Both the position numbers and the translations under genes were made by a program. 43,872 bases of DNA, from IMG/VR virus record IMGVR_UViG_3300045988_074520. One strand, 5' to 3'. Source of the stretch: a virus. Shown piece by piece: positions 12,839 through 43,379 of this stretch. The notes under the pieces are model-generated. The model made no database searches. It was given only the letters and a program-made list of their open reading frames with translations, and was not told the DNA's origin. Every line of letters begins with the position of its first letter. Position 1 is the stretch's first letter.

Positions 12839-13876
12839 TTAAATCTGTACCATTTCCCGGACATCTCTCAGCGTTTTTGGCGTTGATTGGGCATAATACA
12901 TGCTTGTCACCGCCGGACTGGCATGTCCAAGAATTTCCTGTATGATACCAATGTCCACTTTCCTATTCTTCAAATTCATTCCTAACGTTTTGCGCATCTT
13001 ATGTGGATACACGGCGCTTTTCACATCCGCCCGCGCTCCAACATTTTTAATGATCGTGCGGAATCCGCACACGCTCATCTGACCGTATGGCTTTCTGGAC
13101 TGGGGGAACATGAATGGGCTGGCATCCGTCCGGCTCTCAAGATACATGCCGTAGTAGTACCGTGCATCATCATCCAGATACAGCGTGCGGTATCTACCGC
13201 CTTTTTCTCCCTCGATCAGAATATCTCCGGTCTCAAGATTGACCTGTTCGGTTCTGATCTCTGAAATCTCACCTACACGCGCGCCGGTGCTTCGGAATAC
13301 TTCAATGATGGCACGCTCTCGAACGTTCTTGCACGCATCCCGCATATGGATGATCTCGGTTCGGCTGAAATAGTCTATAGGCTTAAGCGCAACCTTTTTC
13401 GGCTCTGTGGCTTCCACCGGGTTCTCATCAATGATCTTTGCTTTCCGCATCCAAGTGTAAAACGCAGACAGGAAGCGGCGCTCATTGTTGTATGTGGTGT
13501 TTTGCACTCTAGGGCCTTTTGTACCCGGCCGCTTTTCATACTGTGCAAGATACCACTCAACATCAAAGGTATCTGCCTTATCAAGCGGCTTTCCGATCAT
13601 CTCTGCGAAATGCTTTACCGTACGCACATATCCGCCCAGTGTAGCTTTCTTGAGCGCACGCTTCTTAATCTTAAAAAGCTCAATGAGATATGCGTTTCGC
13701 TGCTCTGCGTCAGTTTTCCACTCCGCCGGAAGTGAGCAAATCTCCTGTAAATTAACCTTTGTAAGCTCGCTGGATATCACGCTATCCAGAATAGCAATCG
13801 TGTCCTGATCTGAAATGTAAATCGACATGGCGACAACAATGTTGTCAATGATTTCTCTTTTGATATTCTGGCCCAT
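12839..13876 (-). CDS. Second tyrosine recombinase (XerC/XerD/integrase family)
   Basis: AGAGGGAGGATTACT RBS before ATG at 13876. The C-terminal catalytic pattern is GARVGEI...HKMRKT...ILGHASPAVTSMYY. Confidence 0.8.
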   Translation of the reverse strand: MGQNIKREIIDNIVVAMSIYISDQDTIAILDSVISSELTKVNLQEICSLPAEWKTDAEQRNAYLIELFKIKKRALKKATLGGYVRTVKHFAEMIGKPLDKADTFDVEWYLAQYEKRPGTKGPRVQNTTYNNERRFLSAFYTWMRKAKIIDENPVEATEPKKVALKPIDYFSRTEIIHMRDACKNVRERAIIEVFRSTGARVGEISEIRTEQVNLETGDILIEGEKGGRYRTLYLDDDARYYYGMYLESRTDASPFMFPQSRKPYGQMSVCGFRTIIKNVGARADVKSAVYPHKMRKTLGMNLKNRKVDIGIIQEILGHASPAVTSMYYAQSTPKTLRDVREMVQI

Positions 13877-14004
13877 AGTAATCCTCCCTCTTGCAGAATC
13901 TGCAAAGGTCTGATACAATGGGCCTAAGCAGATTAGGTAAGTGGTGGAATCATCTTGGCGGGTGTCCACCACTTGTTTTTATGTTCCATAATCCTTATAT
14001 CTCC

Positions 14005-18720: not shown

Positions 18721-19335
18721 TTAATCATCTCCCCATTTTGCTTTAAAAGCATTGAGGATATTTCCGGCATCAGTCTCCGTCAATGTGTCCCACGTCCGGT
18801 CATTGCTGGCCAACCAGGATTCCATAGGGACTTTATGCTGTTCTGCCAGCCGTTTGATTGTTTTGATCTGCGATTCACTTGCCAATTCGCTGCTAAACGG
18901 GACGTCTGTAAACGGCCTCTGTTCTTCTTTCATCCATAAGTCAAAGCCGAGACCTGTATGGATTGCCACGCACTTTACAAATGAGCGGGTCATACTGTTC
19001 CACACCCTCTGCTGGCTCATGCTGTTGTCCTTTACCGGATTCGATCCATTCATAACAGGTGACTGCATTGTGTATTCTTTATCATCAATCACCACTTTGA
19101 TGCGGGTCTCGTAGCAACGATTTTTGACACCGTTCTTGTCCGTAAACTCCAGATCTGTGTAATAAAGGCTGCTTCCAGTTTTGGGGTTCGGAATCGGCTC
19201 AAAATAAACCGTTTCCGCTCCATAAGCATGCAAAAGCTTCACACACATTGCCCAGTTCAGATATTTGATTCCCTCGCGTTCTGCGCAATACTGTGATACA
19301 TCGATATTTCTAAGCTCACTATACGGCTTCAGCAT
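18721..19335 (-). CDS. Single-strand annealing protein, Sak/Rad52-like (DUF1071-type)
   Basis: GGAAAAGGAGGATAGAGGCG RBS before ATG at 19335. The pattern is YLNWAMCVKLLHAYGAETVYFEP...GLGFDLW. Confidence 0.6.
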   Translation of the reverse strand: MLKPYSELRNIDVSQYCAEREGIKYLNWAMCVKLLHAYGAETVYFEPIPNPKTGSSLYYTDLEFTDKNGVKNRCYETRIKVVIDDKEYTMQSPVMNGSNPVKDNSMSQQRVWNSMTRSFVKCVAIHTGLGFDLWMKEEQRPFTDVPFSSELASESQIKTIKRLAEQHKVPMESWLASNDRTWDTLTETDAGNILNAFKAKWGDD

Positions 19336-19615
19336 CGCCTCTATCCTCCTTTTCCCAGTTTCCGGAGAAGAAAAACTCGACAAAGAGCTGCTTGTCCTCC
19401 TCCGGCATATCGTCTAAATGCGCTTTAGCATATTCATACGCTTTCTGATGGGATACCGTTACGCCGCTCTTTTCCCACACACTTGAAGAGAAAAAGAATG
19501 CAACGAAAAGTTGCTTATCTCTTTCCGGCATATCATCCAGATGCTCTTTTGCGTACTCATAGGCATCTTGATCCGATACCACACGTCCAGCTTCCGGCCC
19601 TATTCCGCACCACAT
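19319..19615 (-). CDS. Hypothetical protein built from an internal tandem duplication
   Basis: AYEYAKEHLDDMPERDKQLFVAFFFSSSVWEK and AYEYAKAHLDDMPEEDKQLFVEFFFSGNWEK halves. Confidence 0.5.
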   Translation of the reverse strand: MWCGIGPEAGRVVSDQDAYEYAKEHLDDMPERDKQLFVAFFFSSSVWEKSGVTVSHQKAYEYAKAHLDDMPEEDKQLFVEFFFSGNWEKEDRGDAEAV

Positions 19616-23341: not shown

Positions 23342-23542
23342 TCACTTCTCCTCCTCGTCCTCTAAAAGAGCTTCGATGCCGACTCCGAAGTAAGTTGCGA
23401 TCTTCTTGATTTTGTCAGCTTTCGGCGTATATCTGCCAGCTTTCCAATTGCTCAGCGTTGCGGTAGATACTCCGGTTCTTTTTGCTACTTCATAGTCAGT
23501 AACACCAGCTTTATCCCTCAATTCCGCATATTTGTTATACAT
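23342..23542 (-). CDS. Cro-like XRE-family HTH protein (66 aa)
   Basis: GAAAGGATGGTGAAA RBS before ATG at 23542. VTDYEVAKRTGVSTATLSNWKAGRYTPKADKIKKIATYFGV is a classic XRE HTH. Confidence 0.75.
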   Translation of the reverse strand: MYNKYAELRDKAGVTDYEVAKRTGVSTATLSNWKAGRYTPKADKIKKIATYFGVGIEALLEDEEEK

Positions 23543-23748: not shown

Positions 23749-24132
23749 ATGTATAGTAACTTTGAAAAGTTATGCTCCGAAAGAAACGTAACCCCTTACC
23801 GTGTATGCAAAGAAACGGGCATTCCAACTGCTACGATAAGCAATTGGAAAGCCGGACGATACACACCTAAACAGGATAAGTTAAAAAGGATTGCTGATTT
23901 TTTCGGCGTGTCTGTTGACTTCTTAATAACAGGGAAGGAGGAAACTGCCGTTGCACAAGAAACACATGTTGATTTAAAAGCGGAATTTAACCGCATCAAG
24001 AAACTGTTGGAAAGCGGGGAAAACGCACCGTTGTATTTTGACGGTCAGCCCGCAGATCAGGAGAGCATCAACTTGCTGCTCGATCAGATCAAGATATCCT
24101 TTGCGCTTATGGAACGTATGCGCAAAAAATAG
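23749..24132 (+). CDS. ImmR/CI-like XRE-family repressor (127 aa)
   Basis: XRE HTH VTPYRVCKETGIPTATISNWKAGRYTPKQDKLKRIADFFGV plus a C-terminal domain. Followed directly by the ImmA-type protease. Confidence 0.8.
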   Translation: MYSNFEKLCSERNVTPYRVCKETGIPTATISNWKAGRYTPKQDKLKRIADFFGVSVDFLITGKEETAVAQETHVDLKAEFNRIKKLLESGENAPLYFDGQPADQESINLLLDQIKISFALMERMRKK

Positions 24133-25961: not shown

Positions 25962-27044
25962 ATGGCAAAAGCAAAAAAATTACCATCTGGATCATGGAGA
26001 GTCCAGGTATTTGACAGATTTGAGGATGTACGAGATAAGAACGGGAAGCCGGTTCTGGATGATAAAGGCAAGCCGAAGAAAAAGAGAATCTACAAATCAT
26101 TCACAAACGATGACCCTACACCAAAAGGGAAACGTGATGTTGAGCGGGAAGCTGCTATATGGGCCGCAAGCAAGGAAAACGAATCAAACACCCACGCGGA
26201 ATTAACATTAGGCGAAGCCACCGATCTATACATAAGCCAGCGTTCTGCTGTGCTGTCTCCTTCAACCGTTAGGGAATATAAAAATTCCAGAAATCGGGAC
26301 CTGCAAGGGATGATGAATGTAAAGCTTCAAGACATCACGCAGGACATGATACAGGCAGCTATAAATCAAGAAGCACTCTCCCACTCTCCTAAGTCTGTAA
26401 GGAATATGCATGGGCTTCTCACTGCTGTCCTTGCCGCTTACAGACCCGGCTTTGCAGTGCGCACGAAGCTGCCAGCAAAAGTTAGGCCTGATCTTTATGT
26501 CCCATCTGACGCAGACATAAAAAAGCTGTTGTCCTATGCAAAAGGGACTGATATGGAGCTGCCTATACTGCTTGCTGCGTTCGGCCCGATGCGCCGCGGT
26601 GAAATATGTGCGTTGGAATCTGACTGCATAGACGGGAATGTGGTGCACGTTGCTTATGCACTAGTACAGAATGACAAAAAAGAATGGGTGAAAAAGAGTC
26701 CAAAGAGCTACGCAGGAGACCGATACATTCCTTACCCATCATTCGTGTCGGATATGTTTAAAGAAAAGTCCGGACGCATTGTTGATATGACACCTATGCA
26801 GATCACAAAAAAGTTTTCCCGGATGTTAAAAAGGGCCGGTCTTCCACACTTCCGGTTCCACGATTTACGCCACTACTCCGCTTCCATACAGCACGCTATA
26901 GGGATCCCGGATGCTTACATCATGCAGCGCGGAGGATGGGGAAATGACGGTGTATTAAAACAGGTTTACAGGCATGCAATGATAAGTCAGGAAAGGAATA
27001 TGAACCAAAAAGCGAATGATTACTTTGAAAAGATCGCAAAATAA
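25962..27044 (+). CDS. int: Tyrosine integrase
   Basis: AAAGGAGTGATACT RBS before ATG at 25962. The pattern is RRGEI...HDLRHYSAS...GGWGNDGVLKQVYRH. Adjacent to attP. Confidence 0.85.
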   Translation: MAKAKKLPSGSWRVQVFDRFEDVRDKNGKPVLDDKGKPKKKRIYKSFTNDDPTPKGKRDVEREAAIWAASKENESNTHAELTLGEATDLYISQRSAVLSPSTVREYKNSRNRDLQGMMNVKLQDITQDMIQAAINQEALSHSPKSVRNMHGLLTAVLAAYRPGFAVRTKLPAKVRPDLYVPSDADIKKLLSYAKGTDMELPILLAAFGPMRRGEICALESDCIDGNVVHVAYALVQNDKKEWVKKSPKSYAGDRYIPYPSFVSDMFKEKSGRIVDMTPMQITKKFSRMLKRAGLPHFRFHDLRHYSASIQHAIGIPDAYIMQRGGWGNDGVLKQVYRHAMISQERNMNQKANDYFEKIAK

Positions 27045-27096
27045 TTACTATTTAACGCGGATAGATAGGGGCGAGAAATGCAGCAAAAAACAGGTG

Positions 27097-27130
27097 TTTT
27101 AAATACAATGCAACACGAAATGCAACACGA
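27097..27130 (+). repeat. 34-bp direct repeat, left copy (two ATGCAACACGA units, 12-bp period); candidate integrase arm-type sites
   Basis: TTTTAAATACAATGCAACACGAAATGCAACACGA is identical to 27302-27335. Confidence 0.8.
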
Positions 27131-27152
27131 TGAGCCAAGAATGTTTATTTTA

Positions 27153-27199
27153 AGCCACTTGTGGCCGAGAGGTCGCAGGTTCAAATCCTGTTGCCCCGA
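27153..27199 (+). other. attP core candidate: 3-prime portion of a long-variable-arm (type II, Leu/Ser-like) tRNA. Not a complete tRNA.
   Basis: Variable-arm hairpin GGCC-GAGA-GGTC, T-arm GCAGG-TTCAAAT-CCTGT, 3-prime acceptor strand TGCCCCG plus A. No matching 5-prime acceptor strand upstream. Confidence 0.65.
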
Positions 27200-27207
27200 T
27201 TAACTGG

Positions 27208-27248
27208 AAAGCCGCATAGAACCTAGAGCTTAGGTTTTATGCGGCTTT
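27208..27248 (+). terminator. Long hairpin downstream of the tRNA fragment (would terminate the reconstituted tRNA gene in a lysogen)
   Basis: AAAGCCGCATA / TATGCGGCTTT outer stem and AACCTA / TAGGTT inner stem, followed by T-rich sequence. Confidence 0.6.
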
Positions 27249-27301
27249 AGATGTTATAAGTATTTATCACTTGTTGCATAAATATATTAAAAATGATACA
27301 T

Positions 27302-27335
27302 TTTTAAATACAATGCAACACGAAATGCAACACGA
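27302..27335 (+). repeat. 34-bp direct repeat, right copy
   Basis: Identical to 27097-27130. Confidence 0.8.
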
Positions 27336-27422
27336 AATATTCTGGATGAGCGGTGTGTCCATCATCTTAAATACTCCATCTGGAGTGTGTCGGGAACCAT
27401 TGCCGACCTCAGAATATTCGCG

Positions 27423-27728
27423 TTATTTTGCACCAGGCCCGTGCTTCTGATCTTTATCTTTATTCCCCTTAGCGCTGGTTGGAGTAAATCCAGCTACAAC
27501 AGTTCCATTAACCGGATGGCCTGCACCTTTCGGAATTCCAACTCCAGGGCCGGACTACACATGTTTCGGCTCTGCATGATCTGCGGTACCGGGTGTGCTG
27601 TCCTTGCGGTACTCGTGATCCGGGCCGGTGCTTAAAACCTCATTGTGCGGTTCCGGAGTCGGTACTCCGGTTGCCGGGCCGTAAGGGATGTTCGGGGTTT
27701 CGGTTCTGTGTTTGATGCTCATACTCAT
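27423..27728 (-). pseudogene. Pro/Gly-rich small ORF interrupted by one in-frame TAG (57 codons, TAG at 27555-27557, 43 codons, TAA)
   Basis: GAAAGGACTACAT RBS before ATG at 27728. My own translation shows the same low-complexity P/G/T/H composition on both sides of the TAG. Confidence 0.4.
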
Positions 27729-28018: not shown

Positions 28019-28255
28019 TTGCCAAATAGTAATTTAACAGATAAATTTGATAAATCCGGTGGAATTTTTTCTGGAGATATAAATCTCGCTGATCACAAAC
28101 TTAATTTTACTAAGGGTGGTACTCTTGGGTTTTATATTTACAAAGATGATTCCGGTAAGCTCGGAGTATACAACCATGATAATTTACTTTTGGCATACTT
28201 TGATTTTGGTGGAGGTCTGCACATGCGCGAAAACATTGTTAAGGATATTACTTGA
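28019..28255 (+). other. Silent alternative C-terminal cassette for the distal tail-fibre gene (opposite strand, no credible RBS or ATG of its own)
   Basis: Open frame ...NSNLTDKFDKSGGIFSGDINLADHKLNF... with a fibre-like GG..SGD.NL motif. Shares the in-frame 14-mer with the fibre gene. AT-rich compared with its surroundings. Confidence 0.55.
28026..28039. repeat. Inverted repeat, left arm: ATAGTAATTTAACA
   Basis: Exact reverse complement of 28569-28582. Confidence 0.9.
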
Positions 28256-28958
28256 TGCAATACGAAAAACTGTCAAAAATTTGCATACCTATAGAGGATT
28301 CTCCGCACCAAAAGCGTAGGCCACCGGTTGTAATCGTTTGCACTAGACTTACAGCTACGTTTGGGTTGCCCCAGGTTGATATACTATGATACAAAGCGTC
28401 CTTTGCGAGCGGTAATACGCCATTATTAAGTAATCCTACATTGTCGCATTTTTGGCTAGGCGTGAATACAAAATAAACAAAACACACCTTGCCGATTACG
28501 TGATAAGAAATGTTGCCAGATCCGTATACCGTATTAATGGCATGAGATACATCGGTAATTCCAGAAGGTGTTAAATTACTATCTAACTTATTAAGACCAC
28601 TGGATAAATCTGTCATACCGCCGGTCAGCGCAGCGGTACCGATCTTTGCCATAACCGTATTAATGACCTTGTCGGCCAGAGCATCAACAAGAGACTGCGC
28701 TGTTACAATATTTCCCTTTTCCCCACAAAGTCCCTGCGTATCCTCTGCCTGCACAGCGGATAAAGCTGTAGCATCAAAGCCTTGCGCCATTAGCTGGTAG
28801 TTGATCTTGTCATCAACCGGAGTGATCCCGGTAACTGTTTTTAAAGTGATGTATGTGCTGTTGCCATACTTGACCATCGTGAGCTGTTCATAAGTTGCGT
28901 CTGCGCTATATTCGCCACCATTGGTTATCATCCATTTACCAAGGTCTGTTTTTCCCAT
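28248..28958 (-). CDS. Distal tail fibre / receptor-binding protein (236 aa)
   Basis: Last gene of the tail module. GGAGGTATAAGAC RBS. The constant N-terminal 130 aa end at ...LDSNLT, inside the right inverted-repeat arm. Confidence 0.7.
   Translation of the reverse strand: MGKTDLGKWMITNGGEYSADATYEQLTMVKYGNSTYITLKTVTGITPVDDKINYQLMAQGFDATALSAVQAEDTQGLCGEKGNIVTAQSLVDALADKVINTVMAKIGTAALTGGMTDLSSGLNKLDSNLTPSGITDVSHAINTVYGSGNISYHVIGKVCFVYFVFTPSQKCDNVGLLNNGVLPLAKDALYHSISTWGNPNVAVSLVQTITTGGLRFWCGESSIGMQIFDSFSYCIK
28569..28582. repeat. Inverted repeat, right arm (TGTTAAATTACTAT), inside the fibre gene at codons 126-130
   Basis: Exact reverse complement of 28026-28039. Same codon phase in both reading frames. 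Confidence 0.9.
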
Positions 28959-43306: not shown

Positions 43307-43379
43307 TGGACCGTCAGGGATTCGAACCCCGGACCACCCGGTTATGAGCCTGGCGCTCTCACCGCTGAGCTAACGGTCC
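43307..43379 (-). tRNA. tRNA with CAT anticodon (Met elongator or lysidine-type Ile2), 73 nt, no encoded CCA
   Basis: Manual cloverleaf: GGACCGT/ACGGTCC acceptor, GCTC/GAGC D-stem, anticodon loop CTCATAA, T-arm CGGGG-TTCGAAT-CCCTG. One A-G mismatch in the anticodon stem. Confidence 0.75.

Follow-up and report, generated by a model that had tools for sequence, protein, structure and literature searches.

Short N-S-N-L sites bound a putative invertible tail-fibre tip switch in temperate phages of gut Lachnospiraceae

Little is known of the host range of gut phages, for which point mutation, diversity-generating retroelements (DGRs) and the slow exchange of modules are the usual explanations. 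In the serine-invertase fibre switches of Mu (G/Gin), P1 (C/Cin), e14 (P/Pin) and p15B (Min), inversion swaps the C-termini of a fibre on a constant N-terminus and changes the host range, and these systems come with an adjacent invertase, 26-bp crossover sites, a Fis-bound enhancer and assembly chaperone genes linked to the cassettes. The R64/IncI shufflon uses a tyrosine recombinase, Rci, which inverts segments between short asymmetric 19-bp sfx sites, conserved only on one side and in the spacer, and so swaps the C-termini of the pilV adhesin. Intragenic invertons were reportedly described in bacterial genomes by Chanin et al. in 2024. Here we analyse IMG/VR virus record IMGVR_UViG_3300045988_074520, a stretch of 43,872 nucleotides (hereafter the window) that looks like the whole ~44-kb genome of a temperate siphovirus, and in which the distal tail-fibre gene (28248-28958, minus strand) appears to end in an invertible segment of 529 bp (28040-28568). 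An initial annotation had proposed an intragenic inverton that exchanges fibre C-termini at this place. The comparative evidence, including three cassette pairs that occur in both orientations, strongly supports this proposal, and for the family as a whole we consider it very probable, judging from the sequences of relatives, that inversion swaps two alternative fibre C-termini.

The closest kind of system described so far is the Rin shufflon of Bifidobacterium prophages, which combines a constant N-terminus of the receptor-binding protein (RBP) with cassettes of 95-100 aa by means of 11-bp rix sites and an XerD-like invertase (Mavrich et al. 2018, PMC6109161), and which is also reported, with H-lectin cassettes, in prophages of Eggerthella lenta (PMC8778435). 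The nearest match in architecture is found in the tRNA-Met-integrated bifidophages 689b-1 and Bb423phi2, where a ~500-bp segment holding a small gene and the neighbouring structural gene's 3' end is inverted between relatives at an 8-bp repeat; there is no flanking recombinase, and an invertase acting in trans was proposed (PMC6109161). Tail-fibre genes are an enriched target class of gene-altering programmed inversions in a scan of bacterial species only (Milman et al. 2023, PMC9881135), and a 2026 paper gives 16 putative invertons on gut viral metagenome-assembled genomes, called the first such report (PMC13501310). We found no description in the literature of the N-S-N-L switch family presented below.

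In the window, the 14-nt sequence ATAGTAATTTAACA stands on the plus strand at 28026-28039. An exact reverse complement of it follows 529 nt further on, at 28569-28582, and the two copies form the arms of an inverted repeat. The junction arm, on the expressed side (28569-28582, minus strand; extended 18-bp site 28570-28587), lies inside the 236-aa open reading frame (ORF) of the fibre and encodes D126-S127-N128-L129-T130, directly after the first 125 residues of the constant N-terminal part (28583-28958, minus strand). The silent-side arm (28026-28039, plus strand; extended site 28021-28038) opens the frame 28019-28255 on the plus strand (stop codon 28253-28255), in which it reads N-S-N-L-T. 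Both arms share one codon phase (xAT AGT AAT TTA ACA). Between them lie two tail-to-tail cassettes: cassette A, the expressed tip of 106 aa (PSGITD...YCIK) with its stop, at 28248-28568 on the minus strand, and cassette B, the silent tip of 71 aa (DKFDKSGG...KDIT) with its stop, at 28040-28255 on the plus strand, the two overlapping stop to stop by 8 nt. The frame of cassette B has no ATG; its sole possible start is a TTG at 28019, and no Shine-Dalgarno-like sequence precedes this TTG. Upstream, the frame stays open for just 6 codons. Inverting 28040-28568 in silico keeps the frame and gives an intact ORF of 201 aa, in which the 130-aa N-terminus continues into DKFDKSGG...KDIT instead of the 106-aa tip. 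The exact repeat with its codon phase and its two readings, the missing start of the left frame, the stop-to-stop arrangement and the lengths of the exchanged C-termini had all been claimed in the initial annotation, and each was confirmed.

Taken alone, the 14-nt repeat is only suggestive. A perfect inverted repeat of at least 14 nt within 1 kb occurs in 12% of Markov-shuffled windows (mean 0.13), and the window has two. The 18-bp family site GTTAAATAGTAATTTAAC, with up to 3 mismatches allowed, is matched in the window only by the two arms, with 0.05 occurrences expected, and 0 of 100 shuffles had two or more. Scans for promoters and terminators around the segment gave nothing above chance.

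The comparison with related phages (loci and proteins are cited below by L and P numbers) is more informative. A search with the predicted flipped protein returned ~75 proteins that are 92-99% identical over aa 1-129/130. Their C-termini, 69-131 aa long, are of more than 40 unrelated kinds, and each begins directly after L-(N/Y)-S-(N/D)-(L/I/F); more than 40 unrelated tips are in this way carried by one ~97%-identical N-terminus. A few of the tips have H-type lectin domains, as do some cassettes of Rin. The initial annotation had raised the point that the 14-mer might be a general fibre junction with no inverted partner. The junction (L-N/Y-S-N/D-L) is indeed family-wide, which taken alone could have meant a mere hotspot of recombination, yet in 13 of the 15 IMG/VR loci with this N-terminus an inverted partner of the junction core follows the fibre stop, directly or at a distance of no more than ~410 bp. 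The partner arm lies 209-408 bp past the stop in 12 loci and adjoins the stop in L019. From twelve of these 13 runs an in-phase ORF that is 76-111 aa long, has no start codon and is open for only 4-15 codons upstream, and most of these silent ORFs end between -8 and +48 nt from the fibre stop (one at +139). Two relatives are degenerate, L019 having no silent cassette and L013 no partner arm. The loci examined later, beyond these 15 viral relatives, all have the inverted partner together with an in-phase start-less cassette; the same layout is present in P0112 / L118, where identity of the N-terminus is only 57%. Homologous arms lie at the same codon position in all relatives, and the layout recurs in ~25 loci from several phage lineages.

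The arms themselves behave as if they were constrained at the DNA level, and the comparative evidence indicates that the two arms of a genome evolve in concert. In 24 of 25 true pairs the two arms agree in every base of the 10-nt core ATAG[T/C]NNTTT, and each of its variants, namely ATAGTAATTT, ATAGTGATTT, ATAGTTCTTT and the synonymous ATAGCAATTT (AGT to AGC), is common to both arms of the genome in which it occurs. The codons of the core are rare in this phage (AGT makes up 11% of Ser and TTA 15% of Leu codons), and the codons next to it vary synonymously between lineages. Across 274 kb, comprising the window and related loci, the motif is confined to the arms and to a third site described below; in 2 x 504 kb of unrelated phage DNA there are 13 occurrences, none of them paired.

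The initial annotation had also suggested comparing relatives for either orientation, and both orientations were found, for three cassette pairs (A/C, D/E and A/B). For A/C, A is the expressed and C the silent tip in L021, and the reverse holds in L007 (= L003) and L008. To the left of the segment the sequences run collinear over 3.4 kb, at identities from 96.4% (L008) to 99.7% (L007); to the right they are likewise collinear, with 96.6% identity to L008 and 74% to L007. The 663-bp segment between these flanks is inverted at 96.5-98.8% identity, with its ends on the repeats. L126-L129 are exact isomers of L008 and share its arm variant ATAGTGATTTA. For D/E, a 611-bp segment is inverted at 98.4% identity between L023 and L024 on the one hand and L020 on the other. 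The window's own pair, A/B, is present, 98% identical at the DNA level, in an unrelated phage: in L002 and L026 A is expressed and B silent, in L025 B is expressed and A silent, and the B of the window is 100% identical to the expressed C-terminus of P0082 / L025. Between L002/L026 and L025, what stands 5' of ATAGTAATTTA remains with the flank and what follows it on the 3' side (ACA or GCA) travels with the cassette, which places the crossover inside the 11-bp core ATAGTAATTTA. Altogether, cassette A is expressed in L002, L021 and L126-L131 and silent in L007, L008, L025 and L125. The repeats, at 10-16 bp, are shorter than typical assembler k-mers, so that assembled junctions should need real spanning reads. 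Taken together, the architecture, its conservation across lineages, both orientations of three pairs and crossovers confined to the core make a consistent comparative case for inversion at these sites.

Two further observations concern individual loci. In L125 (1875-2530) the junction core is ATAGTGATTTAAC and the silent core ATAGTAATTTAAC, and the C cassette begins with ACT (Thr) in place of GCT (Ala); this chimeric-looking arm hints at an exchange or heteroduplex zone of ~7 bp (R-ATTTA-R). Several contigs of metagenome 3300014533 break at or inside the segment (L001 4475-5036 and 8342-8407, L005 1-78), which the switch may explain; such breaks are the sole, indirect hints that both orientations may coexist in one population. 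L001 has the A/B pair without a fibre N-terminus on either side, and the end of the contig repeats the arm and the start of B; this arrangement is either an assembly tangle from mixed orientations or another orphan pair of the kind described below.

The silent cassettes are kept as coding sequence. The silent tips of one genome are expressed by others on the same N-terminus. The silent cassette of L007 corresponds to the expressed tip of P0007, that of L014 to P0037, that of L020 to P0001 and the B of the window to P0082. Between the window and L009, silent B has diverged at nonsynonymous sites by 0.09 (dN) and at synonymous sites by 0.65 (dS), giving a dN/dS of 0.14; for cassette A, dN/dS is 0.06 at a dS of 1.6. 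These comparisons show that silent cassettes are under purifying selection. Stops or frameshifts in the silent frame of relatives had been named beforehand, in the initial annotation, as an observation that would speak against a switch; neither was present in any silent cassette of the relatives examined.

In the mechanism that we propose, the segment is bounded by inverted short sites with the core ATAGTAATTTA and the wider form GTTAAATAGTAATTTAAC, which encode the motif N-S-N-L at the end of the stalk. A conservative site-specific recombinase, acting in trans, would exchange strands inside the core, and the segment would invert. After the flip tip B (71 aa) would have taken the place of tip A (106 aa) on the N-terminus, with A now silent, and the swap would most likely change receptor specificity, as in Mu G, P1 C and Rin. 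The predicted structure of the fibre fits such a division. In the AlphaFold2 model, a beta-domain at residues 11-60 is confident (pLDDT 76-91 for the N-terminal domain), helices at 87-105 and 108-129 form a stalk of moderate confidence (pLDDT ~50-71), and this predicted helical stalk stops at residue 129, exactly at the junction. We read the constant part (aa 1-130) as an N-terminal anchor plus a helical stalk that carries an exchangeable C-terminal tip. The N-terminus has weak matches to PHROG tail-fibre families, and a PDB sequence search with the fibre gave no significant match.

How does the locus compare with the systems introduced above? With Mu G, P1 C and Min it has the logic in common, inversion giving a constant fibre N-terminus one or another C-terminus. 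Like Rin, it joins a constant RBP N-terminus to C-terminal cassettes of about 70-130 aa that can be exchanged. In both, a short repeat that is rare elsewhere (11-bp in Rin) stands before every cassette, and inversions between relatives map to the repeats. The site differs (ATAGTAATTTA here, rix TTCCCTAACCC in Rin), as does the host phylum, with Lachnospiraceae here and Actinobacteria there. The window, moreover, has two cassettes with two full sites and one partial site, a simple flip-flop, whereas Rin has 4-5 cassettes, although the relatives L229/L151 do have three pairs and six sites, spread over 9 kb. The inversion of 689b-1 / Bb423phi2 has a different site (CAGGGTTA), different genes and a different host, and it rests on one genome pair, compared with ~25 loci, three isomer pairs, arm covariation and dN/dS here. 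The R64 shufflon likewise swaps C-termini on a constant adhesin N-terminus at short sites, but it acts on a plasmid pilus gene, rci adjoins the array and sfx is unrelated in sequence. Gene-altering programmed inversions and intragenic invertons are similar in that the repeats lie within or adjoin the coding sequence and the flip gives an alternative in-frame protein.

Which enzyme could drive the inversion? The initial annotation had seen no serine invertase and two tyrosine recombinases, and tblastn and domain scans bear this out. Searches by tblastn with Hin and gamma-delta resolvase found no serine recombinase in the window or the related loci, Pfam scans of 40 window ORFs gave no Resolvase domain, and no fibre-assembly chaperone gene of the serine-switch type was found in the window, so that it differs in both respects from Mu, P1, e14 and p15B. 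The only recombinases found in the window are tyrosine recombinases, at 25962-27044 (plus strand, int1) and 12839-13972 (minus strand, int2), and an invertase of the tyrosine class is plausible.

The tyrosine integrase int1 lies ~1 kb from the silent arm in every close relative. L126, an integrated copy at a tRNA-Pro(GGG) gene (L126 11605-11680) in a Ventrimonas-like Lachnospiraceae contig, is identical to the excised L127 up to this tRNA gene, which identifies int1 as the tRNA-Pro lysogeny integrase. The attP region (27097-27335) contains a 3' fragment of tRNA-Pro and a hairpin (27208-27248). Direct repeats of 34 nt enclose these on both sides (27097-27130 and 27302-27335); they contain ATGCAACACGA in tandem and are likely the arm-type sites of int1. 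A dedicated invertase was rejected for int1 on these grounds, as a tRNA-Pro integrase with arm-type repeats, and a second role as invertase is possible. The third, partial site (reverse complement GCGTTAAATAGTAATT; 27043-27058, minus strand) overlaps the int1 stop codon and has the outer flank TATCCCCG common to silent arms. Across eleven further loci, it is kept in all cases in which int1 identity is ~95% or more and the locus extends as far as the int1 stop, and it does not co-vary with the arms. We also considered a second invertible segment, running from the third site to the silent arm and holding attP, and rejected it, since 13 of 13 loci have one and the same orientation.

The Xer-like int2, which has Phage_integrase and SAM-like domains, has the replication block on one side and the ParB-methylase/TerL genes on the other. 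The families that it matches are XerA/XerD-like, with weak matches to FimB/E-type invertases, and aligned to XerA (PDB 4a8e) its R, H-x-x-R, H, Y signature is intact. Relatives of int2 occur in 106 stretches of IMG/VR phage contigs at ~48-99% identity. One homologue, of 49% identity, is on the module-bearing contig of L005; three complete module-bearing contigs are absent from the best 80 of the 106 stretches. Dimer resolution, cyclisation and inversion are all possibilities for its native function. Rin also has no serine invertase, and the XerD-like tyrosine recombinase proposed for it is similar in type to int2; however, an arm-less XerD-like invertase flanks the Rin array, whereas here the flanking enzyme, 1 kb away, is the lysogeny integrase int1, and int2 is 14 kb away. 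In L002-type phages, the 8 kb to each side of the module contain no recombinase. On balance, and by analogy with Rin, int2 is the best candidate invertase, a role in which we place it tentatively and with nearly even confidence; a host-encoded or unseen enzyme is a serious possibility, and int1 itself an unlikely one.

Several observations weigh against the proposed switch. No dedicated invertase stands beside the segment, int1 being an integrase and int2 lying 14 kb away, and the L002/L025 lineage flips, yet no recombinase is seen in 40 of its 50.5 kb (all but the first 10 kb), from which it would follow that the enzyme acts in trans and may be host-encoded. L125 is the sole pair with mismatched cores (G vs. 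A). The fibre protein of the window occurs on 13 contigs, and every locus read or listed is A-expressed: L130 and L131 reach the silent cassette and have the A/B arrangement of the window, ten further places are listed as similar, and L132 ends at the fibre gene. Samples with this fibre include SRR19487428, ERZ28663750 (SAMN25290083) and SRR31801835, whereas L025, with B expressed, comes from SRR26499393. The exact fusion of the 130-aa N-terminus to B is not among the best matches in 5.8 billion proteins, nor did viral or metagenome contigs yield the flipped junction of the window's lineage. Every one of the 13 B-like protein clusters consists of short ORFs in the silent slot and only P0082 is fused, so that for A/B the A-expressed state dominates; this pair may flip seldom or with a bias towards A, or selection may act against the B state in the hosts sampled. 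In the AlphaFold2 model the cassette is below pLDDT 50, and that the tips set receptor binding and host range is suggested by their position and by analogy. Weighing these points, we infer that flipping probably still occurs in this particular phage.

The same points could be read as the signs of a fossil or locked state, in which the N-S-N-L box is a hotspot for tip exchange between co-infecting phages by homologous or illegitimate recombination, there is no programmed inversion today, and the silent cassette is a leftover of past exchanges. Such a state would fit the missing flipped form in the window's lineage, the nearly always silent B-like cassettes (13 clusters against one fused protein), the degenerate L019 and L013 and the fact that the unit bounded by inverted repeats has clearly been exchanged between unrelated phages. 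It sits badly with the dN/dS of 0.14 at a dS of 0.65 for silent B and the lack of stops and frameshifts in any lineage, with partner arms that keep their phase and, in 24 of 25 pairs, their core identity, including synonymous covariation, and with three pairs in both orientations on collinear backbones of 96-99.7% identity, and we regard it as improbable. Slightly less credible still is that inversion is real and has no dedicated recombinase, relying instead on a Sak-type protein, host RecA or replication template switching. The window does encode a Sak-type single-strand annealing protein (SSAP; 18721-19383, minus strand), which matters only for this possibility, no invertase gene adjoins the segment, and the L002-type lineage flips with no recombinase in 80% of its genome. 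Against this, the arms share only 10-16 bp, less homology than RecA- or SSAP-mediated exchange usually requires, crossovers are always in the same core on unrelated backbones, the core is conserved at synonymous positions and in rare codons, and the motif is absent elsewhere in the loci read. The fixed crossover core, the synonymous conservation and the rarity of the motif point to sequence-specific recognition.

A different kind of objection is that the ORF at 28019-28255 belongs to a separate small gene, encoded opposite to the fibre and specifying perhaps a fibre-assembly factor, and that its N-S-N-L start is a coincidence of shared ancestry. Several B-like ORFs do have an ATG or GTG 1-3 codons before N-S-N-L (MQNSNL, MYVNSNL), the window has its TTG at 28019, and B is nearly always unfused. 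However, the leaders of B-like ORFs are heterogeneous, with at least 8 unrelated flank types of 2 to ~45 aa, the TTG has no Shine-Dalgarno-like sequence before it, and promoter-like matches in the region are not above chance. Other silent cassettes have 4-15 open codons upstream and no start, and in L025 / P0082 B is fused in frame to the fibre N-terminus exactly at the core. We therefore consider an independent gene very improbable indeed, and inversion between alternative tips remains the interpretation that we prefer.

A further feature of these cassette pairs, and one that together with the orphan pairs sets the family apart from the known systems, is that they are shared between unrelated phages. 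Comparing the window with the unrelated L002 and L005, identity begins exactly at the core on the junction side, and with L002 it begins exactly at the core on the silent side too. In addition, L002/L004-type genomes have extra 'orphan' tail-to-tail pairs with the same site that are not joined to a fibre N-terminus (L229 12235-12931 and 20697-21263; L231 12234-13138, which equals L002 2309-3213 and L025 3108-4012). For some orphan tips of L229/L151 there are matching C-termini in expressed form on the window-type N-terminus (P0004, P0015). It is conceivable, although we hold this to be doubtful, that the N-S-N-L site is the currency of a community-wide exchange of fibre tips among Lachnospiraceae phages. 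Double site-specific recombination would then carry pairs bounded by inverted repeats from one phage to another, unrelated one, which would amount to recombinase-mediated cassette exchange in nature, spare cassettes would be stored as orphan pairs elsewhere in phage genomes, and a shared trans-acting recombinase, possibly host-encoded, would shuffle the cassettes. Exchange through a shared enzyme would explain both the presence of more than 40 tips on one 97%-identical N-terminus and that of identical pairs on unrelated N-termini. One of the lineages with an orphan pair, represented by L231, L149 and L263 (IMGVR_UViG_3300045988_137105, 10153-50536), has an unusual gene order, in which TerL, a sigma-like gene, the orphan pair, the distal tail genes, the fibre and the lysis genes precede portal, capsid and tape measure. 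An ORF of this lineage (L263 14722-15462), read by eye, is possibly TIR-like.

The switch is compact and can be recognised from sequence, as a 10-18-bp site encoding N-S-N-L that is followed by a tail-to-tail silent cassette, and it is widespread in temperate phages of the Lachnospiraceae, a gut family that is dominant but hard to work with. Where short 'hypothetical' ORFs lie downstream of such fibre genes, they can be annotated as silent tips. If the proposed inversion is true, each phage would have at least two receptor specificities, and the more than 40 interchangeable tips with a defined splice point could be of use in engineering phages against gut Clostridia.

With regard to the phage and its host, the host gene beside the integrated copy L126 is 98% identical to genes of Ventrimonas faecis and 'Lacrimispora indolis SR3' and 97% identical to a gene of Clostridium sp. 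AF27-2AA, which identifies the host as a gut member of the Lachnospiraceae (Ventrimonas-like). A comparison of the fibre N-terminus with species-representative genomes found no relative, and the GenBank phage collection gave zero DNA matches and a single protein match, at 40% identity. The fibre gene is the last tail gene, at the end of the tail module. The genes upstream of it code for a tape-measure-like protein (1070 aa), a DUF6711 protein, a tail protein (672 aa) that contains a Peptidase_S74 chaperone domain, and a protein of 255 aa. Other phage genes in the window encode TerL, a CI-like repressor, an M78 peptidase, the Sak annealing protein and the two tyrosine recombinases.

Three minor features of the window complete the description. 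Downstream of the switch there is a small His/Pro/Gly-rich ORF (27390-27728, minus strand) with an in-frame TAG at 27555-27557; an intact homologue of 117 aa is present at L003 6403-6756, and in L130 and L131, which have the fibre protein of the window, a gene of 55-57 aa is called at this position. A tRNA-Met(CAT) gene lies at 43307-43379 on the minus strand. Finally, the second perfect 14-nt inverted repeat of the window, GCTTTCCAATTGCT (23439-23452 and 23839-23852), involves the CI-like repressor gene (23749-24132), with one arm inside it and one in the gap upstream, and could be an operator pair or a chance match.

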